From positions 307,005 to 371,004 of the forward strand of contig NMRA01000138.1 in NCBI GenBank assembly GCA_002633005.1: a stretch of DNA of 64,000 nucleotides, read 5' to 3'. A program made the translations under genes and the position numbers. Below, piece by piece: positions 3,388 to 48,496 of the stretch. The notes under the pieces are model-generated. The model was not told where the DNA came from. It was given only the letters and a program-made list of their open reading frames with translations, and did no database searches. The DNA is from Phoronis australis. Its lineage: Eukaryota; Animalia; Phoronida. Position 1 is the stretch's first letter, and every line of letters starts with the position of its first letter.

Positions 3388-3748
3388 GAAGGAGATGGGT
3401 TAGATGGTGGGAGGCAGTGTTACTTGTTCAATTGTGGCTCTCCAAACAAGTGTACATTCACTCATCACAGACACTACGTCTCTATGAGCGTGAAGAAGTT
3501 GGTGAATCAACACGTGACTGAGCTAAAGGATCTGAGTAAGTCAGTGCCTGACACTGAACCTGGCAGGGACTCCGAAGAGATTGGGGAATTCCCCGGGGAT
3601 AATGAAGTTGAGGAGGAAGAAGCTCCACCCATCACAACTGAGCGCACGGTGATGCCATCCACTACTACAACTACCGTCTCCACAACAATGATGACAACCT
3701 CCCTACCAGCTACAACTCCAGCGTCCACCACAGTAGAGCCCAGAGTTG
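3388..3748 (+). CDS. LRP11: LRP11-like exon: MANSC C-terminal half plus Thr-rich mucin-like stalk
   Basis: tttgtag|GAA acceptor, G|gtaagt donor; RQCYLFNCGSPNKCTFTHHRHY...TTTTTVSTT. Confidence 0.85.
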
Positions 3749-12700: not shown

Positions 12701-15700
12701 ATGATGTGGCAGGACGCGACCCAGCGACAGTGGTAAAACATCCAACCAGAACCAGACCTAGGACGACGTCTACAACTGCAGCCTCTGTCGAGGCTCATGA
12801 ATGGTCTGGGTCAGTTGAAAGTGACCTTGCTCACCATCCTCTGGACTCTGATATATTTAAGGATGTGGAGGCTGGTTCCAAGCTTAAGAGTCATCAGATT
12901 GTCAAAGAACAACCAAAAAAACATCATCAGTATGTTGAACCACCTGCAATTCATGTCCATAAAACTCCTCATTGGTTGGTCGATCAATCTCAGTATGAAA
13001 AAGAACCACAATTGCTGCCAAAGTGGCCGAAAATGAAGCCTGACCATCGAAAGACCTATAACACAGCCAATGACTGGTTTAAGAACAGTGACAGTGGTCC
13101 TGTTGCTCCGAGACCGAAAATGGGACAACAGCATTCAAGCCAGAGCACATATAAAGTGAGACAGCCATCCAGATCAAGAGTGGATGACTCATGGTTGACA
13201 CTTGATAAATCGCCACTGCCAAGCAGACATGAAAATCGGTGGAAGAATTATGATTATTTTGACAGCGGGCCCGACTACCCGGCAAAGGTCCACACCTATG
13301 GAAGAGATCGAGGGAACAAGCATTTTCCATCATTTGATTATCGCCCAAGTTACGGAACCAAGCACCGTTACCACAGCAACTTTGACAGATTAGATTCGAA
13401 CCAGAGAGGGCATTACCCTCAGTATGACCGCTACGACTACAATTACGACTATGATAATGATGGCGAACGGGATCGCATACACGTGTATCCATCTGTCCCA
13501 GGTACCAACTGTGTTGTACACGTGTTGTACTTCCTGCTTTTGGTTCGCTTGCACTTTCTGTGCGCTGTAGTTGGATTTCTGTTTGTTGTGATAACTTTTT
13601 GGTTGTTTTGTTGTCACATTGCAAGTTTCTATAAGCACTGCTTGGGTTATAGTCTACTGAGTTGTTTGTTGTGTGTTTCATTACTGTGTGACGTAGTAGC
13701 AAGTAGAAAGCAACAAGATAGTTACAATTTTGACTACAAAGTGTGGTAATTTTATGTTGTCAATATCAATGTGAAAACGCAAGTTTTCGTTAGATCTCGT
13801 ATCGATGTTTTTGTTGGTATGCTGTTAAATTGGTAATTATTAATACTTATGTTTGGCTTTGACAGCATTGAAAGGCAAAGGACACAGTTATGTTTACACT
13901 TCCTTTGTGAAACACCCTTATTATACAAAAAAATGCCTACAATAATTTATCAATAACACCATTCCTGTAGTTGAACGCAAAAACCACATTGCTGGTTGTT
14001 AAACTTAATTTGTACAATAACTTCATTCATAGCAAGTGGTACAAAGAGCAAAGTCCCACCAGTGAAAATGCCAGACAAGGGGCAGCCGCAGTCTAATCCC
14101 ACATCTGAAGGTGAATAGCTTTTATACGACCGTCACTACCATAGTTAATGTCAAATCAGAGTTATCTTTCAAAAGTACTTATGCATGTCAGTTCTTAAGA
14201 AGTGTGTCCTGTTGTTGAGGTGTGTGGACTACATTTGTCTTGAGTTTTTATTTATTTTTAAGAACGCTGTAGAGGGTTTTTGACTTACTTTGTTCTCACA
14301 AATTTATTAATATATTAATGTGTTTGGATTTTTGGCAAGTCTGCACTCCAGTAATGATTTTTGACAACATTTATTGAAACCATGACCATTAACCCCTAAC
14401 CCAATGTACGCTTCATATGGTTTCGAAAGTTTTTGATACTTTTTGCCAAGTAGTTATTACTCTTTTGAGTGCTTGGTCAGATTACCAGTGAAACACTAAT
14501 GTCGTGTCACTGATTGCTAAATCTTAATGCAACTTGTTCATAGATGGGCAGGAAGTTAATAGACCCAACTTGGATCACTTAGAGCATAAGGAGTCAACAA
14601 AGTCCAATATTGAAGGTAACTTTACTATTGTATTGCTTTGGTTAAGGATATGTTTAGGCCATCAGTTCTCATTAAAAGTGCTGCGTAGGATTGTACTAGA
14701 CGACGTCCAGTAGTTTGTTTAGGAAATAGTAAAATATTTATTTGATGCCATCAACAGAAATGGTTGTCAGTTATTTTAGATTAACATCGTTTAATAACTT
14801 ATCAACTGTCTATTGCTAAGCCCAAAAATATTTCTTGACTCCTCAATGCCTGAAAAATATGAATTAAACCCTTAAAGCAGTGAACATTGGTTTGTAATCA
14901 TGTGACAACCATTTTGTATGAAACAAGTGTCATTTTTTGCTTTAGAATATCTAAATGCAGGCAACATTCTTGAAGTAGAATTATTGTCCAAACGCTGAGA
15001 AATGAGTCCCAGATTTTCACCCTCAAACAATGAAGACTCACCAACTAACCAGTTTATGTATGTTTTTTGTAGTTAATCCAAGCAAAGGCAGCGAAGAAAA
15101 TCAAGGTGTGTATGGAAATGTTGTGCTGATTTTAAGTTATCAATGAGCAATCACTTTGTATTCAGAATTTCCTTCAGAACAATTGGGGGTGGGGCTAATT
15201 TTCATGTTTTTCACACTTCACCATCAACATTGGTGCTTGTATCTGCACTCTTGTTACACTATTTCTGACATTTTGCTTCTTGCACCGCCATATTAGCAAA
15301 TCTAGTCACCCTTGCTGTTGGTTGGTTCGCAAAAGGATGTGATGGTGCAGATAAGCTAGCTGAACCATGTTTTGAATTAGGTGTTGTTTAGAGATTGTCA
15401 TCGCAACAAGCTTGTCAGTTAACCAATCTTTGCTGGTTTCTGTAGACAAAGAAATCTCCATTGAAACAGTTTACTTTTTTATCTGTGTCACAGTTGTGTG
15501 AATGACATAAGGTATCCCGAGGGACATTCAAGTTACAAAATTTACTTCTAAGTGAAATAGATCTCTCTGGAAGTACATGTGTTGCTAATGGAAAATTAGT
15601 GATTTAAGCCTCAGTTTGTCTTGATGTACATTGCCTGTGACTAAGTAGTGCCAAGGCCTTGGCAGATAATCCAACTCATATGATTATACCCTGGAAAACT

Positions 15701-17892
15701 TTCAATTAACATAAGTCAAAGCACCTTGCAAGATTGGTGAGGTCACTCTAGTTTGATGCAAAGTTTTTAACTGTTCAACAAGTAAACAGCTAACCTTAGC
15801 TGACAATACTAGCACAATGACTGCTTTTGAACAGTGAGTGGACAGCTTATCAAACTTCATATCAAGTTAAGTGATTGGTGACTATTTCCCTTTCCTTCAA
15901 ACCAAGATAATTTGTTGCTAATATCTCGTGAATGTCCAACATTATTAATCACATCCCAGAGATGGAGCTGGGGCATGTTTTGAAAGTGCATAACACTTGT
16001 GTCTTCAGTTATGGAATTTCACCTCCAAATTGACATTCCAGCCTCACTGACCAATCACTTCAACAATAACCATCTTGTTAGTCTAGGTTAGTAAGGTATC
16101 GAGGTTACTTGTGATATACTCTCCTTTTGTTTGTATGATCTAACCATTCTCACAAGAGTCTTGTTTAACAGACTAGTTTCCAATTAGACCTGTAGTGTTG
16201 TATCAGGATTCATTAACATTATGGCTTGCCTGGCCAGGGACACTGATTATTCACTGAACTATTAACATGCATGCTTCCTTTAACCAGTGCTAACAGAGGT
16301 CACGTCTGCTGGGGAACCACAACCGTACAGCACAATTCCTGCGCCGACAACATCCTCAGAACCTTTTAATACAGGTATGAAAAGTCTAACCGCACTGTAA
16401 GCTCTATGACTGTGTTCTCTTGGTTGATCTTACTGAGTCTCATCTGAACATGATAAGTTTTTCTAGTCCACTATATGGTAATGTTCATTTTTGAATCTAG
16501 TTCGCTACACATGCAAGTGTTGCAATATTCTTACATGGCGCCCTCAGTACCTCGATATTGGCATTGAATATTGGCTCCACTTGCCTAAGAAAAAAAATTA
16601 AAATCATGAGAAATTCCCCTTGTCAGTCGCAAAATTCCTCTCAGTCAATATTAGTTTGGCTGTTTTAAGAATTGCTGATGAGGGCTGGCGACCACGGGCT
16701 TGAATGAGAAGGGGCAAGTCTTCCCTTCAAGTGAATGAGGGCCTTGTTACACCTAGAGCATGTGCATGTGTGTGGAAAATTGCAATAAAATTCTGCATTT
16801 TCTATGTAGCTTTCTTCTAAATATTTGGTCTGGACACAGTTTGGCTGTTCTAGCTTGAAAAAATTGAAATGCGTTTGGTCTTTATATGTCTAGTGTGGTC
16901 CCTTGAATTTGTTTTAGGTAACAAGGATGTTGATATGACCACAGCAGGCATTACTGATGTTATTATGCCCTCAGAGAGATCAAAACTTCAGCCAGGCAAG
17001 AAAGCAACCCCATCTCCCAACCGACCTTCAGTCAGTAGCATTAACAACATTGGCAAAGAAGCCAAATCCTCGTCAACATCAGTTTCCAAGTCGGAGGCAC
17101 AGGGGGCTGTCATTGCCTTGTCACTGGGTTTGTCTGTCACCGCATTGTTACTACTGTTTGTTGGTTGTCGCTATCGCAACATGAAGAGAAAGATCCGACG
17201 CGGCCGTCCTCTTAACTNCTTAGAAAAAAAATTAAAATCATGAGAAATTCCCCTTGTCAGTCGCAAAATTCCTCTCAGTCAATATTAGTTTGGCTGTTTT
17301 AAGAATTGCTGGTGAGGGCTGGCGACCACGGGCTTCAATGAGAAGGGGCAAGTCTTCCCTTCAAGTGAATGAGGGCCTTGTTACACCTAGAGCATGTGCA
17401 TGTGTGTGGAAAATTGCAATAAAATTCTGCATTTTCTATGTAGCTTTCTTCTAAATATTTGGTCTGGACTCAGTTTGGCTGTTCTAGCTTGAAAAAATTG
17501 AAATGCGTTTGGTCTTTATATGTCTAGTGTGGTCCCTTGAATTTGTTTTAGGTAACAAGGATGTTGATATGACCACAGCAGGCATTACTGATGTTATTAT
17601 GTCCTCAGAGAGATCAAAACTTCAGCCAGGCAAGAAAGCAACCCCATCTCCCAACCGACCTTCAGTCAGTAGCATTAACAACATTGGCAAAGAAGCCAAA
17701 TCCTCGTCAACATCAGTTTCCAAGTCGGAGGCACAGGGGGCTGTCATTGCCTTGTCACTGGGTTTGTCTGTCACCGCATTGTTACTACTGTTTGTTGGTT
17801 GTCGCTATCGCAACATGAAGAGAAAGATCCGACGCGGCCGTCCTCTTAACTCTAATGAAGCCGATTATCTGATAAACGGCATGTACCTGTAG
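3388..17892 (+). CDS. LRP11: LRP11-like MANSC/EB/LDLa single-pass membrane protein (multi-exon, 5' part not found)
   Basis: Phase-consistent exons 3388-3748, 4746-4859, 7304-7453, 12221-13501, 14033-14110, 14544-14615, 15073-15105, 16288-16374, 17552-17892. Contains MANSC C-terminal motif CYLFNC..CTFTHH, EB module, LDLa repeat, TM helix and the family-typical C-terminus DYLINGMYL. Confidence 0.85.
4231..4603. mobile_element. MITE with tagacagt..actgtcta termini (family C)
   Basis: Inverted termini with internal hairpins; homologous to 33401-33937 and 31545-31720. Confidence 0.6.
4746..4859 (+). CDS. LRP11: LRP11-like exon: EB module (6 Cys)
   Basis: Phase 1-1 exon; CRPQDKCDGEKTECIDGFCRCKTGYHPKNGVC; donor gtgagt. 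Confidence 0.8.
5041..7033 (+). mobile_element. Helentron-associated non-autonomous element (HINE/DINE-1-like), family A, with internal ~451-bp tandem repeats
   Basis: 5' subTIR/IR atgcgcccacat..atgtggacgcat, (gtcc)n microsatellite, internal repeats, 3' subTIR tgtgggcgcat plus hairpin caacgctctgcgttg, T-rich flanks. Confidence 0.8.
7304..7453 (+). CDS. LRP11: LRP11-like exon: LDL-receptor class A repeat
   Basis: CNPHLEFECTNG...DCIAVYDACDGIAQCADGSDEQFC; phase 1-1 splice sites. Confidence 0.9.
8151..9688 (+). mobile_element. HINE family A copy (one internal repeat fewer)
   Basis: Near-identical to 5041-7033 with the same termini. Confidence 0.8.
9950..11830 (+). mobile_element. Older diverged HINE family A-related copies
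   Basis: Degenerate 5' end at ~10611 (atgcacccacat..atgtgggtgcat) and diverged ctagtggc subrepeats. Confidence 0.65.
12221..13501 (+). CDS. LRP11: LRP11-like large low-complexity exon (427 codons)
   Basis: Long ORF with ttgtag acceptor and G|gtacca donor, phase 1-1. Confidence 0.8.
14033..14110 (+). CDS. LRP11: LRP11-like small exon
   Basis: Phase 1-1, 78 nt, open (ASGTKSKVPPVKMPDKGQPQSNPTSE). Confidence 0.65.
14544..14615 (+). CDS. LRP11: LRP11-like small exon
   Basis: Phase 1-1, 72 nt, open (DGQEVNRPNLDHLEHKESTKSNIE). Confidence 0.65.
15073..15105 (+). CDS. LRP11: LRP11-like micro-exon
   Basis: Phase 1-1, 33 nt (VNPSKGSEENQ), strong T-tract acceptor. Confidence 0.55.
16009..16086 (+). 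CDS. possible additional LRP11-like cassette exon
   Basis: gtcttcag acceptor, G|gttagt donor, 78 nt phase 1-1, open (VMEFHLQIDIPASLTNHFNNNHLVSL); no homology support. Confidence 0.3.
16288..16374 (+). CDS. LRP11: LRP11-like small exon
   Basis: Phase 1-1; alternative in-frame acceptor at 16297; donor gtatga. Confidence 0.6.
16587..17851. other. ~634-bp near-identical tandem duplication joined by a single N (probable haplotype-overlap assembly artefact)
   Basis: 16587-17217 vs 17221-17851 differ by a few SNPs; an N sits at the junction (17218); first copy of the terminal exon is truncated. Confidence 0.8.
17552..17892 (+). CDS. LRP11: LRP11-like terminal exon: TM helix and cytoplasmic tail
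   Basis: GAVIALSLGLSVTALLLLFVGC, basic stop-transfer segment, EADYLINGMYL*. Confidence 0.9.
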
Positions 17893-21177: not shown

Positions 21178-23605
21178 ATACTGGAAGGCTGTTTCGCAAG
21201 GAGCAGTGGCCCCAGAGACAAAGCTTTTTCTTCAATTCCAAATTTAATCAGCGAAACCTGTCAAAACAATGCTTTGACAAATAATACAGTGTTAGCCAAC
21301 AGCAACAACTACATTTCAGGTAGCAAGAGTTGATCACATCCCATTTGTAAGCGATACTTTCTTCACTAATATTTAGGCAAAGTCAACTGACATGACATTT
21401 CACACAAAAAAGCTATCGACAATGAACCAGGCAATTGAAAATCTGTCCTCTCTTTCACTATACTGCACTGAAATCAACACTCCTAAAGCCTGTAAGCTGC
21501 TCTTGAAATCATGCAAGGTAATGAAAAGTACATTGTGTTCACACTACGCTATACTGGTCAATAAGACGCCTTGATTAGTGGAGCTGAGTAAACGGATTCC
21601 ATTTAATTAGTGCAACACATTGACCAAGACAAACTCAACAATTACAGTGAGCAAAGTACTCAATAAATTGCAGTGGAACGATCCTCAGTAAATATTAGCG
21701 ACTATTGGTTGAACTCAATGAAATTTAACTACCGGCCCACAAGCGCACCTTTTGATGCAAGTTGCCCGTTCTCGATCTATGGAATCCTAAATTTCTCGAG
21801 AAACAACTGCAGACGACACTTCTACTAAATTCTGAACAAAAGGCAAATTTCTACATTTTCCTGTTTTTGGAATTTTTATTGATAGCTTACCTGTCAATGC
21901 AATGCACCGTAAACTGTTCATTGCCAGGTTAAATTGACTCAAATTCAAGGATCCGAGTTTGAAATGTCTGACGGCAGACAAGGTATGTACCTGGGGTGGC
22001 AAAGTACGCATTTCAACCAAAAACTTTCGCTGACCAATGATAGCATTTTTTCACCTGATATCAGGAAGGCTTTTCCTGCCTCAATAAACAATGTCATTAT
22101 CTTAAAATGTAAAACAATGTGTGACCAATTCTAGAGTTTTTAGTGATTGTTCTACTTTAATATCATGGCAATTTATTTAGTACTGGGAAATGCAGTTCTA
22201 GAAAAAAAATTGATGAGGAAAGATTCAAAGCTAGTAGGCTAGTCCACAAAATTAGTGAAAGACGAAAACAAATTGTTTCAATGCCATGAGCTAATGTGTA
22301 TTGAGCTTGAAGTTAATCACATGTTGTCAGCTGAACACATGGATTGCTCAGGAGTCTCGACCATTGAAACTGTTGAGGTTGCAACTCGGGATGGTCGATC
22401 ACGATGAAATTGTGTTAAGGTAAAATATTTTCTATCTGGGACACAAATAACAGCTTTTGGAGGCTTACTGCATTGATGCAGATTCCTTTTTACCAAATGT
22501 TGACTGATGACAGCTGTGCAGTACAAAGAACCCAAAAAGCAAAGTAAAATTCCTGATATTTTTGAAATAAGACAAAACAAAATTTCACTTGTCTGCCACG
22601 TTGTCCCAAACTGATTTTTTTCCTGTAGGTAATGAACAAGATGTGACTAGTTCTACAGCTGGTGCATTATACCTTAAAATCAGTTCATTTAACACGCTGG
22701 TATCACTTACAAAAACTAAATTATCTAAGCTCAAGACTAAATGAAAGCAACACAGTGCATGACCACAACCAAAGTCTGACACAAAATGCTTCCACTGGTA
22801 GGTTTATTACAAACATTGTACTAATTAACTAAGACTGCTTGTACCACTTGTCTTGACTCTGCTTGTAAACTAATACTGGACAACACAGCATATAAATAAA
22901 CCATACAAGACCGTCAATTTGATTGTTAAAACAATCCAGAAAACAGCAACTTTCCCTAGAACATCTTGGAAATCTTCGCATATCTGAGTAAACTCAGGAT
23001 TTGCCACAGCAGCAGTTTAAAATTGAACAACACAAACAATTGACAATGTTTATAAACACACATAACAAATTTCATTTTTCTTCTAGTGTTTAAATTACTA
23101 AAAACTATCCCCAGGTTTTGCATAATGTAACCTTAAGTGATACAATGTGTTGTCCGTAATCTGTTGGATGTCTTCACCTCAGCACGTGAAGTAATCAATC
23201 AGAAAATGCAGTCGTACCACAAACAATACAAAACAGCTCGTGAATAAAGACACTAAATACTTTGTGATTCCTATTAATATATCATGGTTGCAAAATGACA
23301 ACAGTAAATTCAGTATCAGTGAAATGCTGAAGATGAGACAACAATTTTTAGTTATTTAACTACTGTCAAAACCAAAACATTTGTGTTGCATTTACTATAA
23401 ACATTGTATAAAAATTCCATAAACATCAACAGCAGGACTTGAGCAGATATTCCTCCAACAGGGAAATAACACAAGAGAACGTGTTAGAAGGGTATGCAGA
23501 AAGCAGACGACTTCATTCTCCAAAATGGCCTCTCGTCATACATGACAACAGGAAGCAGTTGGGCGTGGCCATAAACACACTAGACAAGCTGTAACTTTGC
23601 CTTTT

Positions 23606-23624
23606 TTACAAGTCATTTCTTCCA
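23606..23624 (-). CDS. PCMT1: PCMT1 alternative terminal coding segment (-SGRNDL*)
   Basis: Acceptor ttttttgtttcag; joined to the phase-2 donor at 24989 it reads QWSSGRNDL*. Confidence 0.7.
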
Positions 23625-26600
23625 CTGAAACAAAAAAGTACAGTGAGAGATAAATGTAAATTTCACGCACATTTAAGGAAAATTACTTATTCTTTGAACA
23701 ACGCAGTCACGTAAATCATTTACAATACCTGTTAAATCAACCAGAACCCAATCCATCAGTGGCTGCTATCACAATACAAGCAATAAGCAAGCACACAAAA
23801 TGACCAGCAATTCTGCCATGACCAGGTATGAGAGACAACTTTCTAGAAGGTGGAAACGCTATTCTGTCACAGGATTTTTGGGCAATGGCAAGTAATACCC
23901 AGCCATTTCATCCCTCATTACAAGGAATGGCAATTTATCTGATTGCTTTTGACATGTGAAATCTCACCAATTACCGACAAAAATATTTGCCAAAATTATC
24001 TTTTTTTTTGTTTTTCAAGGTTTTCTAACATTGTTGTGATCCCACAATTCTTTCAATATATTTTCTAATGGTTGCCATGGTGCAGAACTTGAACATGGTA
24101 AAGAATTGTTTTGATGTTACATATCTTTTATGAAAAAATGAGGAAATAAAATTTTTTCAAGTCTGCCACATTGTGTCCTAATATGGGAAGACTTTACCGC
24201 ACATACAGATCACAAAAGTTTCTTTTTCAGCAAAATTTCATTCCTCATCTCAACTACGGGTACCTTTAATGTCACGGTCCAAAACGTGATTCAGAAAATT
24301 TTCAGTTCCAAACATTTGAGAGCAGGAAAATGACTGTTGCTTGACACAGTGTCAAACTCTGCCCACTGCACGGCAATTTTAATGTGACCACAGGCTGGGA
24401 AATCCCACGGTGTAAAATTCCCATGCAAGAGTGCTGAACGCTCTCTACCAACCAATCAATCGCCAAGATGTATTTCATTATCTTGTCGTTACATGGAGCA
24501 AAACTACCAGCACTAATTGATGATTAGTTGCTCTAACAATTTTAATGTATAGTTAGAACAGGTGTCAAAACTGAATAATAGTCGTCAGATTATTTTTGAT
24601 AGAAAAATGATATTCAAGTACATGAAAAATTAGGTATTTAGCAAGGGAATATACTCGCAGAAGGCATTTTCGATTTACGTCAATACTCTAGACAAGAATA
24701 AATGGAAATTTCTAAAGAACTTATCCCCAATAATGCACTGTTACAGTAATGGAAATCATTTGTTTATAACACAATTGCAAGGAAGTACTTGCCTTTAAAA
24801 GTTCATTATTGAAACCAGCTTAAGTTTTAGGGTTCAACCATTCATAATTTTTCAAATATCCACCCTGGGCATCTACCCTAAACATGTTTCTCACACTCTC
24901 ATTGGGGGTCTATTTGTCACGGTTTGTAAGTGGAAAACATAATTATGTGTATGCTAACAAATCTTAAAAATATCTAACTTATTTCCACCTTGACCACTGC
25001 TTTTCCTTGTCAGTCAGAGGCACATAAATGACGCCCATCAGGTCAGTAGTGACCACAGTGCCATCTGGCTTCTTGTCCACCTGTTTCAGGTACTGGCTGT
25101 GACCCTCCGGTCCAACAGGACAGATCAGGCGCCCCCCTGGCTTCAGCTGCGCTATAAGCTGGAAGAAGAAAAGAGGCTGCTTAAAGTCATGTGCAATGTG
25201 CTATTTTCAATTGGTCAGGAGAGCTATTTGCAATTGGAGAGCTATTTTCAAATGGAAAGCTATTTTCAATTGTAGAGCTATTTCCAATTGTAGAGCTCTT
25301 TCCAATTGTAGAGCTATTTTCAATTGGAGAGCTATTTTTATCATTGTCAGTGAAGTTCTACTGGCTTTGATAGATTACTATGTTGTATTATTTATAAAAA
25401 TTTTCAATCTAATGAAACTAGCATTCCAGTAACGCATTTTTAGATGGTTGCTGGACAAGGGAAATTTTCACTTGGCTTTGAGTAAAGAAACAGTAAAATG
25501 TGAAAAATCCTGTTTGTGACAACAAACTGTTAAACTGGATTAGTTTACAATGTAAGCAATTTATTTATTTTTATAGTAAACAAACACAAAAACAACAAAC
25601 ATGAACTAAACTTTGTGATATTTCTGGAAATTGTAGAACAAGAATCCAACCTTTAAAAGAACACGTTCATTTTGTTAGAATTAGAAAGTGAGTGGAAACA
25701 CTGGTTGCAGATTTTTGTTCAGCATTCAAGTTAAATTTATGCAATACCCCCACTCTATTTATGCATTACCCCACTCTATTTATGCAATACCCGCACTCTA
25801 TTTATCCATTACCCCACTCTATTTATGAATTACCCCACTCTATTTATGCATTACCCCCATGCTATTTATGCATTACCCCCAATCTATTTATGCATAACAC
25901 TACTCAATTTGAGTTGTTATTTTGCATATAGTTACCAAAAATAATTCTTGTAAAACAAACTCAGAAATAAATAAATAAATATATCTAAAAATGTCCACAT
26001 CAGTAACTAAATTATGAGGATTCTTTTTACAGATATCCAAGTCCAGACTTTCCACCTTGTTGCCTCTAGGTAGGCAGTGCAACTAACTACCACACAAACC
26101 TACAACCATTCAACGTTGCTCTGAGTTTGATGCTTTAGTTTGCAGGTATATTTTGAACACAGGGGCGCAGTCAGAAACACAGTGGTACGTGACAATTTTT
26201 TTGGCTAACCTCTTATTGGGTATTACAAAGGCTACTCAAGATGTTTCTGGATACCTTTTATCGTGCTTTGAAATGGTAAAATTACCACAAGGGAGCACAG
26301 AGGTAGGCAGATCCATCCAAAAGACAAGGTGAGCCGTGCTAACACTAACAGGAACACACATTCCAATTTTCCTGATGGTCCATAAATAGCTTATAGGTGT
26401 TGAGACAGGCACAAAAAATAATATTGTCATTAGGGGAATAGCAGTAGTAGGTTTCATTCAAAATCAGACACATGTGTTAACTTACATCAGGTGGAAGAGT
26501 GGGGGCAGCTGCTCCCACGTGTATAGCATCATAAGGGGCACCAGGGGCATAGCCCTTCCGGCCGTCCCCTGTCACCAGCTTGATGTTTCCAGAATCGACA

Positions 26601-29600
26601 AGCTTCTCCAGCTTGGGGTCTTTTTTAACATTGTCAATAGACAAGTTGACTAGTTCATCAATATGGTCGATACCAATTGCTTTTCCTGAAGGCCCCACCT
26701 AAAATAAGATTAAGGGTTTCATAAAGTCATTAAAGTAAACATAGTTCTTTTACTTCACTGGATTATTCTAATAATTTCATTTACGTATCAACTGGACCCA
26801 CTAATTGTGTTTTTAACTCAGGCTTTTCTTGCAAACATTATGCTAGCCAATAAAAATTGGTAAATCTAATCTGCAAAATTTCATGAAGTTCCTTCATAAA
26901 AGTTGATACTAACAAAAACTGCCACCAGGGGAAGTAGCAATAGCCACAAAAGTCCAAAAGTCAACATCAGGCAGGATTCTTTCAATAGAAACTCAATCCT
27001 CATTAATCGTAACAGTTCATCATACTGTTTGGCAGACAGAAAGGAACTACCAAAATGGAACCAAAATATCAAAATTGCCACGAGGAGCAATGCGGAAGAG
27101 GGGAGGTGCCGTCTTCTTTTATTTTAACAAACCTCTCAAATTTAATGAAGTTTCACCTAGGCCTACGCAAAAAAGGTAAAAAATACCACAAGGGGCACAG
27201 CAAGAGGCAGATCCATCCAAAAGTCTATGTAAGATGTGCTTTCACTAACATTCCAAATTTCATGACGATGCTTAAAGAACTTATAGGTGTTAAGGCAGGC
27301 ACACAAAATAAAATTGCCACTAGGAGTGGTCAGATTTGTCTGAAAATTGATGTCAGCAATGCCTTCATCCCTAGAGCTATACATGTCAAATTTCACTACA
27401 ATCCTTCTCTAAGCTTTGCAAGCATTGAGGCTAAGTCAGGAGAAAAAAAAATGGCACAGCAGAATTTGGTTCCATCTAAAAATCAGCCACAGCCATGCTT
27501 TCATCAACAAGAACACCTCCGCCAAATTTTATGATGATACTTGGCAGACACGGATTGAAGCAGACACCAAAAATGGACACAAAATACTTTTAAGTTTACC
27601 AACTGCCACCAGGGGGCACACAACATGACACAACAGTCAGAAAATTGAAAGGTCATCCTCACCTTGACACAAAAAAATCTGCTAGATTTCCAAAAATGTG
27701 TTGGCAAGGGGATATTATAATAGCAAATGTTGGCAAAACACGTCCTTTACTTGATAGAAACTTGTCTACTAAATTTAATGTTAGACATCCAAACAGCGAT
27801 GTCATGTGGAAATAAGAGTGTACACATATCAAACATGTCAGAACACCACACAATGGACATCCATAGGTTAAAGTTACTCTGTCACCAATGGTTCCATAAC
27901 AACAATCCAACTATCACCTATCGACCAGCAGTACACACCATTAGTGCCATGCAGGCTGTAAGGTAGCCACTTCCTGACCCCACATCCAGGGCCGTGGCGC
28001 CCTCTTTGAGATGGCCACTGAGGATTTGAAGAGCATGAGCATGCTGAAAATGGAACAAAACGCAGCACAAGGTAACAAGGAAACATTCAGTGTACACAAT
28101 GGCCACCCTTGTATTTAAGAAAGAATTTTCACATTGAGGAACTTTCAAATTGAGAGAAAAACATTTTCCCTAGGTGTCTCAAAAGCAATTTTGTACATTT
28201 TTGTAGTAAAGACCCCATGTTTATGTTTTCACAAACATTTTTGCAAACACAAAATTGCCTTTGTTTCAATTTTTAAATTATCAAATTCTGCTTTACTATT
28301 TCAAGTGATACATAACAAACAACCTCCTTTACTTTTTCAGCTGAATCACACTGCAGTTCTGTTTTCCCGATATCTTGAAACATGCCATGTTCATGGTTTC
28401 GTAAAACAAGAAAAAGATCCATGTCACCTTCAGAAAGTATCCACTTAAAAATTTCAGCTTCAACATAATTGTTGATGTTGATTGATTTGTGGCCAAAGTA
28501 TGCCACATTTGATGGATTGTATTATATTAATTAATTTTTGGTTCTTAAAAATCAAAACTATTAGAACTATGGCATCTGCTACTGAAATATGAAAATTCTG
28601 TTTGAAATATTAAAAATGCTGGGAAATAAGCCAGATTCCAGGAATTTGGTGCATTTTCTGTAATTGCAGAAAACTAAAGTCTCTATAGTAGTTTATATTT
28701 TTCACCAACATCATAAATGTCTCAATTCTCTCAGAATCAGTAAGAGCATTAAATTTAAATGAATTATTTAGTACTTGGAATTCCAAACGTAGAAATACTT
28801 TACGTTATCATAAGCTAGAGATACAAACATCCCTCTACTCTGTACCTAAGGTCTACGAGTATTCAAACGTCTACATAACAAAGTGAAACAATTCAACTTA
28901 AGATAATTCAAAAGCACAAAAACTTAATGATCATTTGATGCAATTGAAAAGAGAAAGAATATGGATGTAAAAAAGTCCAATGTGAGTTTTGAAATTAAAA
29001 TTTTGATTACCATTTTCAAACTAATAAGAACAAGACTTATCTTTTATTTTGGCTCAACTCTTGCTTCATTTCATTTGCAACTGAAAATATGACTGAAGGG
29101 TGTTGAAAGTCCATGAGCATGCTTCCACTACACAAAATAACTTTATACACTCAGGTTTTAGCCAAGGTGAGGCACACAAATACAACTTTTATCAAAGGAT
29201 GACATTTCGCTCTATCAATTGGTGATTACTCACCATGTGGGGTGCACTTATCGTCACATGGTAACCAATGCCTTGTGGAGAGTCAACATATGGATTGCGA
29301 GGACAGTACTGCCCCCTATCAACTGCTTTCATTGCCTCATAAACGCGGTTATCGCTGATAATACCATTCACTGAAAAACAAAACAACTCTTAAATGACTA
29401 GCTTCAGCCTTACAGCCACATGCCTTTAACAATATCAGAGTAATACACCACTAGACAATAACTATAAATGAAACACAAATCAATAGGCAGATCAGCGTTT
29501 GAGCACCTGATTGAAAGAGCAATCTTGAGAATGCAGTAAAACTTGTAGAAGTCATTTAAGAGATTTTATCAGAGAAAGGCTAAATCCATGTCACAAACCG

Positions 29601-31072
29601 TACCACAGAACTTTCTCCAAAGGGAAGATACGACTTATGTGCAAAAGATTTGATATGCATGTATGTTTCAGTTTAGTTCATTTTAAAACTAACTGAGCAT
29701 TTGATAAGATGTATTGACACTCACATTTTAAGTTATCAATAAGTTCATCATTGGTCTGGCCCGTTGATCTCCATGCCACATTTAAACTTATAAAACAAGC
29801 AATCAATAGGCCTGTTAGACGTATGAATTTCTTCCCAAAATTAGCTTCCATTTTGAAAGGACAAGGTTCAGAGTTCAGAAATTCCTGAAAAGAGGACAGA
29901 ATGATGCTTGTGATCAGAATTTAAAGAATGTATCCAACAGATCAGCAAACCCAGGACGCACAACAAAGATTACCATATCGAAAAAAGTGTCCAAGCATCA
30001 CTAAGCCCCCTTTCCTATGACATGTCCAACTCTAAATGTACACAGTCCTCACAAACCACTCAAAGACACTTCTGGTTGCATCAGTAAAATACGTCCGTGA
30101 CAAATATGTCCGTGACAAATATGTCCGTGACAATTATGTCCATGACAAATATGTCCGTGACAGATATGTCCATGAAAAATATGTCCGTTACTAAATAATA
30201 AACAACACTGCCTTTGACAAAAGTGCGTATAAACCTGCCTTCCATCAACAAATATAGTTTTCGATTTGTAACAATACCTTAAGTTATGAAATTGGATCCT
30301 CACCAAACACGATTTCTGGAGTTCGGAAGATCATACAGTTTGTTAATGCATGAAATAGGATTCAACAAGTTGGCTCGTCACAGGTCATTTGATGTGCCGA
30401 GCACGGTCTCAGTAAACATCAACTTTTTCGAAGTCCAGAATATTTTCTCAGCTGAGATCAGTTTTCCAATGGTAAGTGGTCTAAATTCAAAGTTTGTTTC
30501 CTTGAAAGAATATAGGTTTATAGTAGGTTTCTGCAAGTTGAATTGTTTATACCGCCCTACACACCTACACAGGCACTGCAGTGATTAGTGCTTACAAACT
30601 ATATAGCACTGCTAGACCTTCACACAGGCACTGCAGTGATTAGTGCTTACAAACTATATAGCACTGCTAGACCATCGCACAGGCACTGCAGTGATTAGTG
30701 CTTACAAACTATATAGCGCTGCTAGACCATCACACAGGCACTGCAACGATTAGTGCTTACAAACTGTACAGCCTTGCTAGACAATCAACATAAAATAGGG
30801 ATTTTCTTGACTTCAGGTATACATACAGACAATACTAATGTGAGATTTCTCTCAATGAGTGCAAACTATGTGCAACACCGGGCTGTGCCCTTAAGTGATT
30901 AAAAGGACAGTCACATTCACATTTGTTTTTTACATCTCTAGTGCAGGTTCTTACTTCGCAAGTTTGTAATAAGTTCAACATTTGTGCGTCCTGAGGACTG
31001 CCACGCCATGTTGCCAAACTGTCGGATTATAAAAGCACCAGTAATACTAGCTACAGCAGTGCCCAGTCTCAT
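23606..31072 (-). CDS. PCMT1: Protein-L-isoaspartate(D-aspartate) O-methyltransferase (PIMT), alternatively spliced
   Basis: Exons 31009/31072-30955 or 29851-29725, then 29370-29234, 28043-27939, 26698-26486, 25158-24979 (or -24989), optional 23624-23606. Motifs [60 protein letters not shown]. Confidence 0.95.
24979..25158 (-). CDS. PCMT1: PCMT1 exon (motif III, -RWK end; internal donor at 24989)
   Basis: [19 protein letters not shown]...[19 protein letters not shown]. Confidence 0.95.
25218..25338. repeat. 18-bp minisatellite (gagctattttcaattgga-like)
   Basis: About 7 degenerate copies. Confidence 0.75.
25737..25897. repeat. ~20-21-bp minisatellite (tttatgcattaccccactcta)
   Basis: About 7 degenerate copies. 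Confidence 0.75.
26486..26698 (-). CDS. PCMT1: PCMT1 exon (motif II)
   Basis: [17 protein letters not shown]...[28 protein letters not shown]. Confidence 0.95.
26860..27625 (-). mobile_element. Diverged HINE family A-related remnant (another piece at ~26270-26460)
   Basis: Reverse-complement subrepeats gccaccagggg / gccactagg with aaatttcatga motifs. Confidence 0.55.
27939..28043 (-). CDS. PCMT1: PCMT1 exon (SAM-binding motif I)
   Basis: [35 protein letters not shown]. Confidence 0.95.
29234..29370 (-). CDS. PCMT1: PCMT1 exon
   Basis: [21 protein letters not shown]...[20 protein letters not shown]; canonical splice sites. Confidence 0.95.
29725..29851 (-). CDS. PCMT1: PCMT1 alternative first coding exon 1b with signal peptide
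   Basis: [43 protein letters not shown]|gtgagt donor (phase 1); acceptor ctcttttcag at 29884; paralogous to exon 1a. Confidence 0.8.
30093..30190. repeat. 15-bp minisatellite (gtccgtgacaaatat)
   Basis: 6-7 copies. Confidence 0.8.
30568..30782. repeat. 55-bp tandem repeat x4
   Basis: Units start at 30568, 30623, 30678, 30733. Confidence 0.85.
30955..31072 (-). CDS. PCMT1: PCMT1 first coding exon 1a (canonical MAW start at 31009; upstream in-frame ATG at 31072)
   Basis: [40 protein letters not shown]|gtaaga donor (phase 1); acceptor at 31111. Confidence 0.85.
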
Positions 31073-31544
31073 GTACAGTCATTCCATCTGGTATGAAGGC
31101 AGCAGAAAGGGCTGTAAAATAAACAGAGTCAGTTTGAATCTCCATTGATAATTATAATATCCCTCAATTTCACTAAAAAACTATAACATAATTCATGAGA
31201 TTTCATCGGTGGGGTAACTTACTCACTAGCAGCACTGACGGTAGTTTTTCAAATGCATTGTGGGATGTTTGTTCGCTCATAAATACCTGCTGATGTTACG
31301 TTAGTGAAAGCATCTGTGGGTGAGTAATACTTGTGTGACCATGAGCTTCCTTTATAATGCAAGGGAACTTCTCTTGTTTTCACAAGTTTCTTGGGACATC
31401 AGAGCCCCAGTCTGTCATTTTTTTTCTTAACCGCAGCATCATTAGATGGTGTTTGAAAAACTCTGTATTCATTTGACGCATTTGTAGCTCATTTTTTAAG
31501 TTATAATATGACCGTTGCTTAAGCAGGCAAGAGTTAAATATATA

Positions 31545-32199: not shown

Positions 32200-33240
32200 T
32201 CCTAATTTTTGCGACATCTGTTGGGTGATGACGACAACCTCGCGGCAGCAAAATTTGTTCCAAAATTTGGTTTGCTGACTTGTAATGAAATGACACCAGC
32301 TCTAATAATTTCTTGTGCCATATACGCAACCTTGTGGAAAATGAGTTGATTGAAGAATCGGCAGCTGAAACTGAAACTGGGCAATAGGTGGCACTACTGT
32401 ATTACGGTGGTGAAAGCCAACGTATAAGATTGTTAAACAACTTACGCAGCAGAATAATGGTAAAGCGCAATTTCAGCAATACCAGTTAACAATTTAGTTT
32501 ATTTAAGGGATGTCAACTTCATAGCTTTGTCACCTAGGGCAGGCTTTGTGAATAAATCAGCAATCTGATCAGTGGGTACATATTCAATTTTTCTGTATTT
32601 TATCACTGACAAAATGGTACCTAATATCAATATGTTTGGACCTCTGATGCACAACGGGGTTTTTGGTCAGTGCAACAGCACTCTGTCACTGTCACAGTGC
32701 ATACTGTCACTGAAATTTAATGACACTATTTTTTCAGTTCTTACTAGACCAGTTTTTTACATATATTTAGTGTACAGCTCTGGGCACTGGTTGGATACAG
32801 TGGGACCGCTATATCTGACCAGTGCCCAGCCCAGATTTGCATCAAGGCTACTAAACTCTAAACTAGAGTTTAGCCTTGGTCTGATCTGGGTATTTATTTA
32901 GAGCTAGACTAGACTCTACTCCAGATCAGAAAAAAACATAGTCAACTTCATCGCATCTTAGTCCACGTATTCCACAAAATAGTAGGAAATAAGTACAGTT
33001 TAATATATTTAAAGAGCCCGAATTTCCTTTCGAGCTTTTTGATAAAAATTGTCACAGGATAATATACCTGTTGTTAGAGTACAAAACTCTAAACACCAAT
33101 TTTTGGAACTGCCTTAGAAGCTGACCTTCACATGTGCAGTGGTAATAGCTACTTTATCAATTCTCCCCAAAGAGTGCGCTGTAAGTGTCAATGTTGTTCT
33201 TGGCTGAGATTTGAAGAGGGCCGCAAGTTTTCAAGTATCA
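32200..33240. promoter_or_regulatory. Putative divergent promoter region between PCMT1 and arginase
   Basis: Head-to-head arrangement; candidate PCMT1 non-coding first-exon donor (gtaagt on - strand, ~32445). TSSs cannot be determined from sequence. Confidence 0.35.
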
Positions 33241-33362: not shown

Positions 33363-36300
33363 GCACGTCAGTTTTATCATTTCTTCACTAAACTAAGCAG
33401 TAGACAGTGATCACCGTCTGTAGCTGGCCCAGTAGAGACAGTGAAGCTCCCATATAGAAGCTTCATAAGCTCGTCTTATGCCTCACACATCAAAGCCACT
33501 TTGTTATAAGTAGTTTTTGTGCATAGACGGACATTTTAGGGGACTTCAATGTCTTTAAGGCCGTCCATCTCAGACAAATACTCCCATTTTTGTAATCAAA
33601 CTTTTTCTTCGAGGAGTCCTTTGTGCAGTTGCCATGTCAATTTTTAACCTTGCAAATGCAGCAGGTGGTATTGGATGTCATATCTCTTGCGCTGTGTAAA
33701 AGTGGACAGTTTCCGATTTTGGGAACTGAACAAAGGACTGCGCGAAGAAAAAGTTTGGGAGTAATTGTTTGAGTTGGAAGGATCATTAAGTTTAAAGACA
33801 TCGGCAGCCTCTTTAGGTGTCCGTCTATGCACAAAAGGTACTTAAAACAATATGACTTTGATGTTTTAATAAGTGTAAGGCATAATTTGCCGAAAAGCCT
33901 TTGTCTCTACTGGCCAGCTAGAGATGGTAGTCACTGCATGTTTAGCCAAGAGGCAATTGCCACTTGGTAAGTGATTTAAAGAGGCTTTATATAGCTGCAT
34001 GTCACTCCCAGAAGTCACGTGTCACAGTACTTCTCTCCAACAGATCAAGCGTGCTGCCAGCCCCGAGGTGGGCCACGTCTCTGGTCTGAGTTTCCACTGC
34101 AGTTGTTGGAGCCTGACTCCAGACTGCCCCAAGAGGTGTGGTGACACCCCTATAGGTTTGCTGACATCCTGTGTGTTCTTCTGTTCTTGGACACCACTTG
34201 AGTTGACTCTTATCAGAATTTTTTTCAGAATTGATTACTCGAAATCGTTTTGAGTGACGTCAATGAGTACTGGTATGACTGGAGGTACGATCAGGAACTC
34301 AACAGACGACATTGTGAGAATGAGAGTGGATCAAACCATTGTTAAAACTGTCTGGCTTTTGGCGAGATTGTCCCGCTTTTTGAAAGTGTCCTATGTTCAG
34401 CCACAATATCAATTTTTGACATGTGATGATATTCAGACAATGACGCCATTGTGTGAACGCAAATTGCTTTCATGCTTTTGCACACTAAATACCCTACTTC
34501 CTGTTCCATTTTCGTGCATGACTAGAAAAGAGAAAAATGTTGGCATGGTGTTTTTGAGTGTTTTTAAAGGCTTAAGAATTTTCGTTGTCATTACTAATTG
34601 GGCTTGAGTCGCAGGCCGTCATGTTATTTAAGCAAATATTTTGCTTTGGTGACATAGAATTCTAATGCTAATGAAATGAAAGTGTGTGGACAGAGGGACA
34701 TTTGCCGAAATTGACTGAATAAGGATGTTTATAAGTGATGGAGAAAGCAGCCTGTCTTTAGACAACAATGCTCATGTCACCCTTGACGAGGTGCATTGTT
34801 AGCTTAATTAACAGTCTGACTTGACCTGTTAACATTTTGGTAATTCGTAATTTTGTTGTAGGCAGAGATTGGTGTTGAGTTTGGTCCTAGCGAAGTCAGA
34901 AAAATGGGAATTGAACAACGTCTGAAAAGTGTTGGTAAAGAAAATATATAATTTCTTATGTACAACTTCTTTCCCTTTTTAAACTCTTGCCATGAGTTTT
35001 ATGTGCTCATTATTGGACATTTCATCATCCAATAAAATCACAACTCCATGGATCAGAATCTTAGTTGCTTGCCTAGCACCCTTGTTGATGTGTCTTTAAT
35101 TACAAATTGCTGTTTGTCTGGATGTTATGTGCATTTTTTGATGTTGTGAATACAGGACATATATATTTGAATCAAGTTCTGAAGAGATTTCTTTTTATTG
35201 ATGAGTTTAGAAACCTGTGAGCATGAATATAAACTCATGTATTGAGTAAATTTCATCCAAAGCTAGGTTTCCGCTATTTTAGAAAATGGAAACTTGGATA
35301 GATAGATATTGGTTTCATTAAAAAAGATAAAAAAACACCATAGCACGATAGCAGAATCATCATGTATTTCATCATGTTTAATATTAAATTAAGTTTTGAA
35401 AAAGTCATGGAAGTTACGTTCCTTTTGAATATCACGTTTTGACCTTTTCAAATAATGGATTATACTCTTAAGTCCTGTGTCTTAATGTTGTAGGCTTGAA
35501 TGTGTTTGACTATGGAGACATAGATGTTTGTGTGGAACGAGATGACTTTCCTGTTCATGGTGCCAAGTTTCCAAGGACTGTTGGCAAGACTGTAGAGAAG
35601 GCAAGCACTTCATATAGTATTCATATGTCAGTCATGTGCTGTACTGGCTGCCAGTACCAAATCACATTTTCAGAATATTTTTCGAAACCTTATTTTATTA
35701 GGTGAACTAAATTTTGATTTCATTATTGCTTCAGATCACTGATATCTTCGAAATTTATATCTTCTGTTGTTCTAAAGAAATTTATGTAGACTGAACATTG
35801 CTGTTACTAGGGCCTTTTGGTGTCAATTTTCTGTTTTGTAGTGGAAATTCCTTTGCATTAAAAATTTGCTTTCTTTTGTCACTTATGAGTAGAAATTACT
35901 CTTGACCCTGCTGCAAGGTAAATTGTTGGTATTTCATTTTTTTTGTTTTAATTACACATAGCTTCTGTCCTTGGCTAAGTGGTTCATCAAACATCATTAC
36001 ATTCACTATATTTCTTGAATTAAAACAGCAGAGGGCATTTCTACACTTTCCTGTTGCAGTTGTCCAATCACGTCTATGAGATCATTAAACAAGACAAGAG
36101 AGTTCCATTGGTCATAGGCGGCGACCATAGCATGGGAATTGGTTCCATTTATGGTCACATGATGGCTGAAGAGAACGTATGCATCATTTGGGTGGACGCC
36201 CACGCAGACATTAACACTCCCCTGACATCTCCCTCAGGCAACATTCACGGCATGCCGCTTTCATTTCTTATGCATGAGCTTCAGGAGTACATGCCTCAAA

Positions 36301-39300
36301 TTCCTGGCTTTGACTGGTTAAAACCATGGTGAGTATTGATTGTTAGCTGGGCTTTGATTGGTTAAAACCATGGTGAGTATTGATTGTTAGCTGGGCTTTG
36401 ATTGGTTAAAACCATAGTGAGTATTGATTGTTAGCTGGGCATTGATTTCATGAAATTGCTGTGAGTTCTGATTGTTTACTAAATTTTGATTCCATGATGT
36501 CATGGTAACAGTTCCAATGTGTTCTAGGCTGTGATTGGTTGGCACTGTGGTTGAGTGGTAAAGATTAACCCAGTAATGGTTGGATTTCATTGTTTGGGGT
36601 GGCACTCAACATTTTTGCTGGTATTGGGCCTTGGAAAAACCAGGTCCAGACAGCTCCACCTCCCTGTTGGCACATGATGGACGAAATTTGAGTATGAAGA
36701 GCATACTGGACCAAAAACCTTGCACAGAATCCAAGAATTTTGACTGTCAAAACCCTCCAGATTATAGAAATCAGCTGACGAGTGGATAACGATCAGATGT
36801 TTCTTTAGTGTCTTCTCTGAAGGGTACCTGAATTTCTTGCTAAACTTTCTGCTTCCTGGTAGTTAAGGTTTAAGAGGTCAACAGCTATCATTATTTTAAT
36901 CAGAGCAAGCTCAAAAGTCAACCAAATGTCACTTGTAGTTTCACATGTAGTTCAAAACTCAAACTGCTTATCAACACAGCAGCCGCCAATTTCTACTGAA
37001 TGTGGGGTGAGGTATATTTAACCATGGCTCAGAAAAATTATTGAGTGCCACCAAAGACCATAAGTTTCTGAGTAAGTGGAATTGTGGTATAGGGTAATAA
37101 TTGGGATTTGAATGTGTGAAACTTTCAAATTATCTGGGATTTATCTGGGTAAACTTGTAGTGCTGAGATTTTTTATCACAAACCAATTTGAATTCCTGGT
37201 GTTAAATGCACTTTGAATAAAACTATAATCAGGAATATCGAATGGATGAAGGGTGTTGTGAGTACTGATAGTGGATTGGATTTTGGCACCAATTATGGAC
37301 CTTGCTGATTTTGATTTGGTGAAGCAACAGAATTCAAAGCTTAGACTAACAAAACAAATTCATCATGGTGTCATGAAGGGATTTCTGAATTCTTCATTTT
37401 TCTATTTTTGTGAATCTAATTTCTTACAATGTAATCAGTCCTTCCCAAATGCGTAAGGACTTCTGAATCACTTATGAAATAAACACTCTCATTATGTTTT
37501 GCTCTTCATCAACTCTGTCTGTTTTTTAAGTTTTTCAGCAAAAAAAGACATTGCATTTATTGGATTACGTGACGTGGATCAGGCCGAAGCCTACATGCTT
37601 GAAAACTTTGGCATGGCAGCTTTTTCCATGCAAGACATTGATCGATATGGTATCAATGAAGTACTAAAGAAGGCACTGGAAGCTGTAAATCCTAAGTAAG
37701 AGTGTAGTTCACGGGTGAGAAACAACATGACCGCCGGTCCTCTAAATCGGACCGACTCACCCAAACAGGACTGACGCACCTAAAAACATGACCGTCCCAC
37801 CACAAAACAGGACTGACGCACCTAAAAACATGACCGCCCCACCACAAAACAGGACCGCCGGGGACTGAGTAGTTAAGGCCTTTGTGTGATACTGCGGGTT
37901 ATGACGTAACCGGTCAGATAGCTGTGTAAAGACTATCGCCAAAATAAAGCTTGACAGCCTTGCGTTATTGAGCTCCGTTACATCCCCGACATTGCCCACA
38001 GCCCGGGTAGTTCTGCTCGTCACCTCGTCGTGNNNNNNNNNNNNNNNNNNNNNNNNNNNNNNNNNNNNNNNNNNNNNNNNNNNNNNNNNNNNNNNNNNNN
38101 NNNNNNNNNNNNNNNNNNNNNNNNNNNNNNNNNNNNNNNNNNNNNNNNNNNNNNNNNNNNNNTTATGCAGTGGATAAAATTATAATTATTTAGCTCAAAA
38201 GCGTACAACGAGGTTGTTTTGTGTTAGATTTATTAAATGTTGACCTTTCAACTGTTTATAAGTCACATACCGCAGCCGGGAGCCTGGTGATGAGTAAAAC
38301 TCAAAAGCGCCGCGTATTACAAAGCGAAGTGTCCTTTGTTGCTCACAAAAGATTTCGGTGGATTAATCGGCACAAGACCTGCATATGCATACGTATATAG
38401 CCCCATTGTATGATCTGTGTAGGCCTAACGGTAATAAATCTTAGCCTGTTAGTTATTGCGGTTTTAGTCCCCGGCGGTCCTGTTTTGTGGTGGGGCGGTC
38501 ATGTTTTTGGGTGCGTCAGTCCCATTTTCTGGTGCGGCGGTCCCATTTGATCCCCGGAGGTCCTGTTTAGAGGACCGGCGGTCATGTTGTTTCTCACCCG
38601 TGTAGTTGTAATAACCAATAGATTGGCATTTAACTTGTTTTACATTTTAATTACAATCCATGCATTCCAATTTCATTGCATTTTTACTAAAAAGTATATC
38701 CATTTCTAGATCTTGTAAATATCTGTGGTGAACATGCTCTTCAAAGGAGATTCCTTCTTCACAACTGGTTTTATCTCCACATTCTCTCAGGCACAGCTTC
38801 TATTGTGAGTTAGTGATGCATATAATTAGCTGGTAAGCCATGCTGGAAACTATGTTCCAATGAATAGCTAAGGCTAGGTTTTTAGTAACAAAATCGCTAT
38901 TACTTGACCAATTTGGAAAAATTCAAGAACCCCCGTAGTCTAATTTTTACTCCTTTATTCATATTTTACGGTTTCCATTGGTTTTCATGTCCCAAAAAGA
39001 AAGTGGAAAAATACAGTATAGAAGTTTTCAAGACCTATTTAGATGTGATCTGATAGGAAACAGTAATTACCCTCACTATATGACCCAGTGAATAGAATCA
39101 CTCTATTGGTGACTAGCTCCCTAGTAAGATTGGAATGTGAACTAGTGTGGCTGACCACCTGACATAGGAAATATTTCTCCAAACCGATCCTTATCTCATT
39201 TAAAGTGCTTAAAGAGTTCCCACCATGACTCTGTGTCTCAAAAAGAATTTTTTTAATGCATCTTCAGAGATTTAATAGCCTTTAGTATACCTGTTGGTAA

Positions 39301-48263: not shown

Positions 48264-48496
48264 TTATGTCTGGTTAAGATATTTCAGTGTCTGCGAATGT
48301 GCTAGGAATGTCACAGCATTGACCGGAAATGCCCTTAAACTGGTGATGAGTGTGCCATTAAAGAACACTCGCACACCATGAGCCAAGTACATCTGCACCG
48401 CACAGTCCCAAGCATTGCGATACTGTCCAATCATATCACTTTGTAGCCGACTTTTGATGACGTCAAAAGGCATTATGCTCATCCAGGCAATCACTC
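48264..48496 (-). CDS. SLC25 terminal exon
   Basis: PFDVIKSRLQ...RAFPVNAVTFL...NQT*. Confidence 0.9.

Follow-up and report, generated by a model that had tools for sequence, protein, structure and literature searches.

The 64,000-nucleotide stretch of Phoronis australis DNA analyzed here (contig NMRA01000138.1, positions 307,005 to 371,004; hereafter the window) carries on its minus strand a gene for protein isoaspartate methyltransferase (PIMT; PCMT1 in mammals), in which the first coding exon occurs twice, as exons 1a and 1b. Exons 3, 4, and 5 each score above the Pfam PCMT (PF01135) cutoff of 20.3 bits (36.1, 64.6, and 57 bits, respectively), single exons stay below the cutoff of the whole-protein model TIGR00080, as expected for pieces, and exon 4 has PIMT chain 1i1n as its best PDB match (E = 9.9e-22). 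The spliced frame comprises 232 amino acids via exon 1a and 256 via exon 1b; the latter is open to its C terminus and holds six of the six PIMT motifs sought. PIMT is regarded as cytosolic, and the features of exon 1b described below suggest that it may have an overlooked form in the endoplasmic reticulum (ER).

Each of exons 1a and 1b is preceded by a pyrimidine-AG acceptor of its own and ends at a phase-1 GT donor that splices to exon 2 at 29370, and the start contexts are AACATGG at the canonical ATG of exon 1a (31009) and AAAATGG at the ATG of exon 1b (29851). In the order of transcription, exon 1b holds a stop in the frame of exon 1a (29870-29868), its ATG, a 24-codon leader that is first basic and then hydrophobic, a GTG at 29779 where exon 1a has its canonical ATG, and the conserved PIMT N terminus. 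At the other end of the gene, exon 5 is either spliced to 23624, giving the C terminus RNDL (its stop codon ends at 23606), or read through to give RWK and a stop; both PCMT1-type tails, a spliced KDEL-like and a read-through RWK, are thus found at the locus. The original prediction had proposed an ER-resident PIMT made from exon 1b and the RNDL tail, and every sequence feature that it listed was recovered at its position, including the alternative 3' splice, an N-L-S sequon, and the stop reached five codons after a join of exon 1a to exon 1b. Exon 0, the upstream ATG of exon 1a at 31072 with its 21-residue extension, and a two-codon upstream open reading frame (uORF) at 31087 are added here (Table 1).

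Table 1. Exons and start-proximal features of the PIMT gene in the window
Feature	Position	Strand	Remarks
Exon 0	33068..33125	-	Noncoding, without ATG; 5' ends cluster at 33123-33125; spliced to 31111 and to 29884
Exon 1a	30955..31111	-	uORFs; weak in-frame ATG 31072; canonical ATG 31009, start of the 232-aa PIMT (presumably cytosolic)
Two-codon uORF in exon 1a	31079..31087	-	Met-Glu-stop; in frame with 31072 and 31009
Residual in-frame extension of exon 1a	31010..31072	-	21 codons; weak start context; peak hydrophobicity (KD9) 2.0
Exon 1b	29725..29884	-	Duplicate of exon 1a, from sequence, alignment, and junction reads
Exon 2	29234..29370	-	TISAPHM motif at end
Exon 3	27939..28043	-	S-adenosylmethionine (SAM)-binding motif I; PF01135
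Exon 4	26486..26698	-	PF01135; N-L-S sequon; PDB match 1i1n
Exon 5	24989..25158	-	PF01135; read-through past donor gives minor RWK-stop tail
Exon 6, coding part	23606..23624	-	RNDL-stop tail; then 3' untranslated region with reads to at least 21501

Expression was followed in three raw-read runs of one study (X2, X3, and X4, in which order counts are given; about 18-19% of each was read) and in a fourth set, X1, of contigs from another study that we guess to be RNA. Short reads do not resolve whole molecules, so the exon combinations of each mRNA are derived from junctions. Every constitutive PIMT intron is backed by reads. The join of exon 1b to exon 2 (29725 to 29370), on which the original prediction hinged, is present in all three runs (3, 1, and 16 reads) as well as in an X1 contig; with 24, 16, and 68 reads joining exon 1a to exon 2, exon 1b accounts for 20 of 128 entries into exon 2 (about 16%; 6-19% by run). 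Exons 1a and 1b had been thought to be mutually exclusive. This is contradicted by 3, 2, and 14 reads that join the two (30955 to 29884) with canonical splice ends, and we rejected a pair of mutually exclusive duplicated exons, given that both occur together. Direct joins of exon 0 to exon 1b amount to 0, 0, and 4 reads, all in X4, and 19 of the 23 reads entering exon 1b come from exon 1a: exon 1b is mostly a cassette added after exon 1a. Exon 0 reaches exon 1a by two joints lying 3 bases apart, a difference that we read as an allele in a short repeat where the exon ends. Stranded depth was also seen inside intron 2 (28289-29188, minus strand), at 3-8 in X2 and X3 and about 1 or less in X4, for which a retained intron, an alternative end, and repeat-derived reads are options.

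The splice that creates the RNDL tail (24989 to 23624) is carried by 18, 14, and 42 reads. Immediately inside intron 5, read depth is 0.13, 0.03, and 4.31, compared with 14.1, 13.8, and 38.1 in the 300-base bin around the 170-base exon 5, from which read-through was estimated by hand at roughly <1%, <1%, and 6%. RNDL is the dominant 3' end and the default tail of nearly all transcripts; therefore, most exon 1b mRNAs must end in RNDL, as do nearly all exon 1a mRNAs. The isoform combining exon 1b with RNDL is very probably made, as had been proposed. An exclusive coupling of the two was rejected, with the tail being nearly universal among PIMT transcripts and present on the cytosolic mRNA as well. 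RNDL matches the C-terminal retrieval class XX[DE][FLM] and carries the favored basic residue at -4. As side observations, intron 5 contains poly(A)-type hexamers at 24546, 24383, and 24270, which could end the RWK form, and the 3' untranslated region (21501-23605, minus strand) is at least 2.1 kb long and highly polymorphic between individuals.

Aligned from acceptor to donor, the DNA of exons 1a and 1b scores 75, whereas 300 shuffles give a mean of 31 and a maximum of 48.5; by this alignment, exon 1b is a whole-exon duplicate of exon 1a. The 1b start codon aligns with the exon 1a ATG at 31087, which is there followed by Glu and then a stop, and this two-codon uORF is likely the broken ancestral leader start of exon 1a. 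From the same alignment, exon 1a seems to have lost the leader start and exon 1b the canonical start. Over the 18 codons shared by the two exons, the proportion of synonymous differences (pS) is 0.73, a value somewhat inflated by path averaging, and that of nonsynonymous differences (pN) is 0.24 (Fisher P = 0.002). On a profile of 80 homologues, the core of exon 1b scores 50.6 bits, compared with a median of 50.2 for the homologues and 47.2 for exon 1a, and none of 20,000 neutral simulations with 19 or 9 substitutions reaches the exon 1b core score, while about half gain a stop. The idea that exon 1b is a decayed pseudo-exon was rejected on these results; judged from the sequences compared, its PIMT-coding part is under purifying, protein-level selection. 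Nonsynonymous variants in the reads number two in the residual extension of exon 1a and one in the core of exon 1b; none is found in the exon 1b leader among the variants listed, where read depth is low. That selection has kept an exon without a cytosolic start codon argues for a function of the leader form and makes this locus a natural experiment.

The leader of exon 1b has three basic residues followed by 16 uncharged ones, with a net flanking charge of +2 before and -1 after; under the positive-inside rule, such flanks favor a luminal C terminus. Its peak hydrophobicity (KD9) is 2.97, and it has a basic n-region and a hydrophobic h-region as judged by rule only. Taken alone, the hydrophobic stretch stands little above chance, its peak being equaled by 5.6% of 2,000 intron-derived 24-mers; the argument is based on splicing, on selection, and on the conservation seen across animals. 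In BLAST, the similarity of the leader runs into bivalve leaders. With the 42-residue exon 1b frame as the query, the ESM Atlas returned no usable match, and a homology search returned five candidates, none of which was scored. The N-L-S sequon was considered and rejected as a sign of luminal life, any sequon being present in only 59 of 218 homologue cores. Of the ER-resident enzyme originally proposed, the exon has thus proved to be spliced in and to bear the marks of selection, while its ER-luminal site stays a prediction: the leader would likely direct PIMT into the ER.

Homologues were collected as 226 proteins from the best 120 of 493 and the best 120 of 4,053 matches, two overlapping sets. 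The collection is heavy in vertebrate pcmtl, and a full core could be parsed in 176 proteins and not in 50. Among the 176, an extension of at least 12 residues precedes the core in 140, a shorter one in 2, and none in 34, of which 12 are bird models that also end short of the tail. Peak KD9 is at least 2.0 in 125 of the 140 extended homologues, versus 30% of intron-derived peptides, and 85 of the 140 have an XX[DE][FLM] C-terminal end. In a set of 31 named invertebrate genera with one protein apiece, which excluded Phyllotreta (an over-long model with no extension) and Aphelenchoides (unparseable), 26 were extended, and 22 passed a basic/hydrophobic/low-acid rule versus 19.8% of intron peptides; this comparison counts for less toward an ER form in that the rule was set after the sequences had been viewed, the test ignores kinship, and gene models favor the most upstream ATG. 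Signal-like leaders occur among molluscs, chelicerates, an insect, a tardigrade, echinoderms, and hemichordates, and the extended proteins of Lingula, Diadema, Mactra, and Cordylochernes fail the rule. In vertebrates, bird, Xenopus, and caecilian PCMT1 models carry extensions of 55-74 residues ending in a hydrophobic stretch, and the pcmtl models of fish, amphibians, and reptiles have hydrophobic leaders some 19-36 residues long. The premise that vertebrates have no recognized leader has therefore to be abandoned. Three named fungal matches have neither an extension nor such a tail.

With leaders in many animals, the ER idea becomes more general and less special to this locus; the leader is probably ancestral in bilaterians, to judge from its distribution, and the local feature is the exon split. 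In a tree of 55 PIMT cores, the protein of the window has no well-supported sister, and its best identity, 72%, is to bivalves. Among the homologues compared, only one, from Limulus, has a different first segment without the canonical Met; this segment (isoform X1; P0034, P0035, and P0056) is nonhydrophobic and possibly reflects an independent first-exon duplication. Two Mytilus models of the PIMT cluster (P0259 and P0264) are longer and named VRK kinase, suggesting that the annotation merged adjacent genes.

Published work offers several points of contact. An RDEL isoform of PCMT1 was described in 1992 (cited in PMC7859441), and PMC7859441 (2021) leaves the puzzle of the KDEL-type tail open; there, the reference Pcmt and Pcmtl of zebrafish have no signal by TargetP, extended isoforms may exist, and calreticulin is reported as a major Pcmt1 substrate. 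More recently, PMC12718117 (2025), a paper that makes such localization calls with DeepLoc2.1, gives the ER in a supplement as the predicted location of the annotated human PCMT1 isoform and a different one for a truncation; in the supplement sheets searched, the only other entry for PCMT1 was in a proteomics sheet. The accessible part of PMC13626670 mentions a signal peptide only for Cx26. In the openly available literature that was searched, we found no experimental ER localization of a long PIMT isoform.

How much protein exon 1b might yield depends on the start codons that precede its own. In the exon 0-1b mRNA, the 1b AUG comes first, in a strong context. In the 0-1a-1b mRNA, it is preceded by the two-codon uORF, an 11-codon uORF, and the exon 1a frame, which spans 44 codons from its weak AUG or 23 from its strong AUG and stops 16 nucleotides upstream of the 1b AUG; exon 1b also shares its frame with a weak AUG at 30981. 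This layout loosely resembles that of ATF4 and GCN4, which likewise have a very short first uORF, an inhibitory uORF, and then the main AUG; here, the inhibitory uORF and the main AUG lie 69 and 157 nucleotides past the first stop. The inhibitory uORF of ATF4 overlaps the main ORF, a feature that fails here, where the inhibitory ORF would be the exon 1a frame, ending 16 nucleotides before the main AUG without overlap; unlike in ATF4 and GCN4, two further AUGs lie in between. Stress favors reinitiation at the main ORF in ATF4 and GCN4 mRNAs (PMC10275272). By analogy, the exon 1a frame might be an inhibitory uORF that raises the ER form under ER stress, which we regard as quite improbable.

Taken together, the reading that we favor, with a probability of roughly 0.52, is that exon 1b yields a low-abundance, ER-directed PIMT that is retained by the shared RNDL tail. 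The ancestral animal exon would have had two in-frame AUGs, the upstream one adding a leader of 20-35 residues and the canonical one giving the cytosolic enzyme. After the duplication, the cytosolic start would have survived in exon 1a, whose leader start was disabled by a stop at codon 3, and the leader would have survived in exon 1b, whose cytosolic start changed from ATG to GTG. The 1b AUG would be read first in the rare exon 0-1b mRNA and, in the commoner 0-1a-1b mRNA, would be reached by leaky scanning or by reinitiation after the 23-codon exon 1a ORF, a requirement that would keep its output low. The product would carry out SAM-dependent isoaspartate methylation in long-lived luminal or secretory proteins, and the RNDL tail would be inert on the cytosolic form.

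Besides the limits of the genus comparison, several observations count against this ER-luminal enzyme. RNDL has Asp rather than Glu at -2 and fails the stricter KDEL-type pattern, an ending in [KRHQSA][DENQ]EL. By inspection, a cut after Ala26, at an Ala-Trp site, would have Asn at -3, because of which an uncleaved anchor is possible; an alternative Ser-Thr-Gly at 29-31 fits cleavage but would remove the conserved Trp. The 19 of 23 entries into exon 1b that pass through exon 1a place a strong-context uORF upstream, with a gap of only 16 nucleotides, and given this uORF, little 1b protein may be made. The supply of SAM in the ER is described as uncertain (PMC10349129), and PCMT1, in whichever isoform was examined, is stated to lack a signal sequence and to be secreted unconventionally (PMC12187236, 2025).

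Alternatively, the protein made from exon 1b could be sent by its leader to mitochondria or be anchored by it to a membrane with the enzyme facing the cytosol; catalysis would then use cytosolic or mitochondrial SAM, and the tail would be irrelevant. We consider this rather unlikely, even though it would avoid the luminal SAM problem and has a precedent in plant PIMT2, whose extensions target mitochondria (PMC12510314). Leaders in animals are basic and almost devoid of acidic residues (median, 2 basic and 0 acidic), and an Arg follows the hydrophobic stretch at -2 of the canonical Met in 91 of 142 leaders, mostly of vertebrate pcmtl, and at -3 in 15, which is mitochondrial-processing-like and is a further point against an ER destination. 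The hydrophobic moment of the exon 1b leader, 0.68, points the same way. However, this leader has an acid, its only one, at position 2 and neither an Arg near the junction nor any basic residue between the hydrophobic stretch and the enzyme N terminus, its flanking charge favors a luminal C terminus, the XX[DE][FLM] ends of the 85 extended homologues would be left unexplained, and the long human form is predicted to be in the ER (PMC12718117).

A different possibility, which we hold to be improbable, is that exon 1b mainly acts as an attenuating or poison cassette: its inclusion would cut the exon 1a frame short at 23 codons and reduce the amount of cytosolic PIMT, and exon 1b itself would yield little protein or none. 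The predominance of entries via exon 1a, the strong context of the 1a AUG with its 16-nucleotide gap to the 1b AUG, and the finding of direct exon 0-to-1b reads in only one of three raw-read runs are all in its favor. Against it, the exon 1b core matches the family profile as well as typical homologues do and better than exon 1a; in the neutral simulations, a stop arises in about half of the runs, and the score is retained in none. Moreover, the frame is open from the strong 1b AUG into exon 2, the weak AUG at 30981 is also in frame with it, and premature stops near the start favor reinitiation (PMC10275272). Finally, the 1b protein could enter the secretory pathway and escape retention by RNDL, so as to be secreted and act on extracellular matrix or plasma proteins. 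RNDL is not among KDEL, HDEL, and RDEL, the major retrieval variants named in PMC8248988, and in the available text RNDL is absent from PMC8248988 and NDL from PMC8276033. Extracellular PCMT1 and extracellular partners have been reported (PMC8760697 and PMC12187236), and METTL9 is a signal-peptide-bearing, secreted methyltransferase (preprint 10.64898/2025.12.23.696137). Against secretion, which we judge very improbable, stand the basic residue at -4 and the membership of RNDL in the broader XX[DE][FLM] class, a pattern quoted in PMC8276033, where QEDL is a putative retention sequence.

The ER-directed PIMT favored here can be compared with several known systems. Human and other mammalian PCMT1 belongs to the same PF01135 family and has the same pair of RWK and KDEL-like (RDEL) tails; in tetrapod PCMT1 models, however, the leader and the canonical Met are contiguous in one protein (extensions of 55-74 residues), whereas in Phoronis australis they are split over two duplicated exons, with Val for Met and an RNDL tail. 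Zebrafish Pcmt and Pcmtl and the pcmtl paralogues of fish, amphibians, and reptiles share RDEL or GDEL tails and hydrophobic leaders but are separate genes rather than duplicated exons. Plant PIMT2 is likewise an isoaspartyl methyltransferase that reaches other compartments through an N-terminal extension, but it is a separate paralogue reported in mitochondria, chloroplasts, nucleus, and cytoplasm, and a KDEL-like tail is not discussed in the accessible text (PMC12510314). METTL9 and fungal NHMT show that SAM-dependent protein methylation can take place in or beyond the ER (10.64898/2025.12.23.696137; PMC10349129); they differ in being histidine methyltransferases rather than repair enzymes and in an unrelated targeting arrangement.

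The window holds further genes. An arginase gene (34500-41300, plus strand; exon 36024-36329; PF00491 and TIGR01229) lies upstream of PIMT exon 0 and, according to the reads, is expressed from the opposite strand. A gene of the SLC25 mitochondrial carrier family with several exons occupies 48267-55899 on the minus strand (PF00153 on 49837-50319), and a rhodopsin-family G protein-coupled receptor is encoded by a long single ORF at 62613-63722 on the plus strand (PF00001). Positions 3388-17889 (plus strand) possibly form one membrane-protein gene with a weak MANEC match below the cutoff. A transmembrane-like exon is present there twice in almost identical form, at 16854-17240 and at 17488-17889, around a single N at 17218; this probably reflects a duplication in the assembly. 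Two near-identical 270-base frames (6634-6903 and 9273-9542, plus strand) belong to a dispersed repeat.

A KDEL-type tail on an enzyme with no known route into the ER has been an oddity since 1992, and the conserved leader would supply the missing piece. It is tempting to speculate that bilaterians, including humans, make an unrecognized ER-luminal isoaspartate-repair enzyme from an upstream PCMT1 start, which here would have become a dedicated exon; we put this forward tentatively, as something short of an even chance. If true, the RDEL tail would be accounted for, repair of damaged secretory and ER proteins would take place in the lumen, and studies expressing only the short PCMT1 would have missed a form. 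It would also require a supply of SAM to the ER lumen, which in animals must then exist. Whether PCMT1 with the long leader behaves in this way is testable with one construct in human cells.

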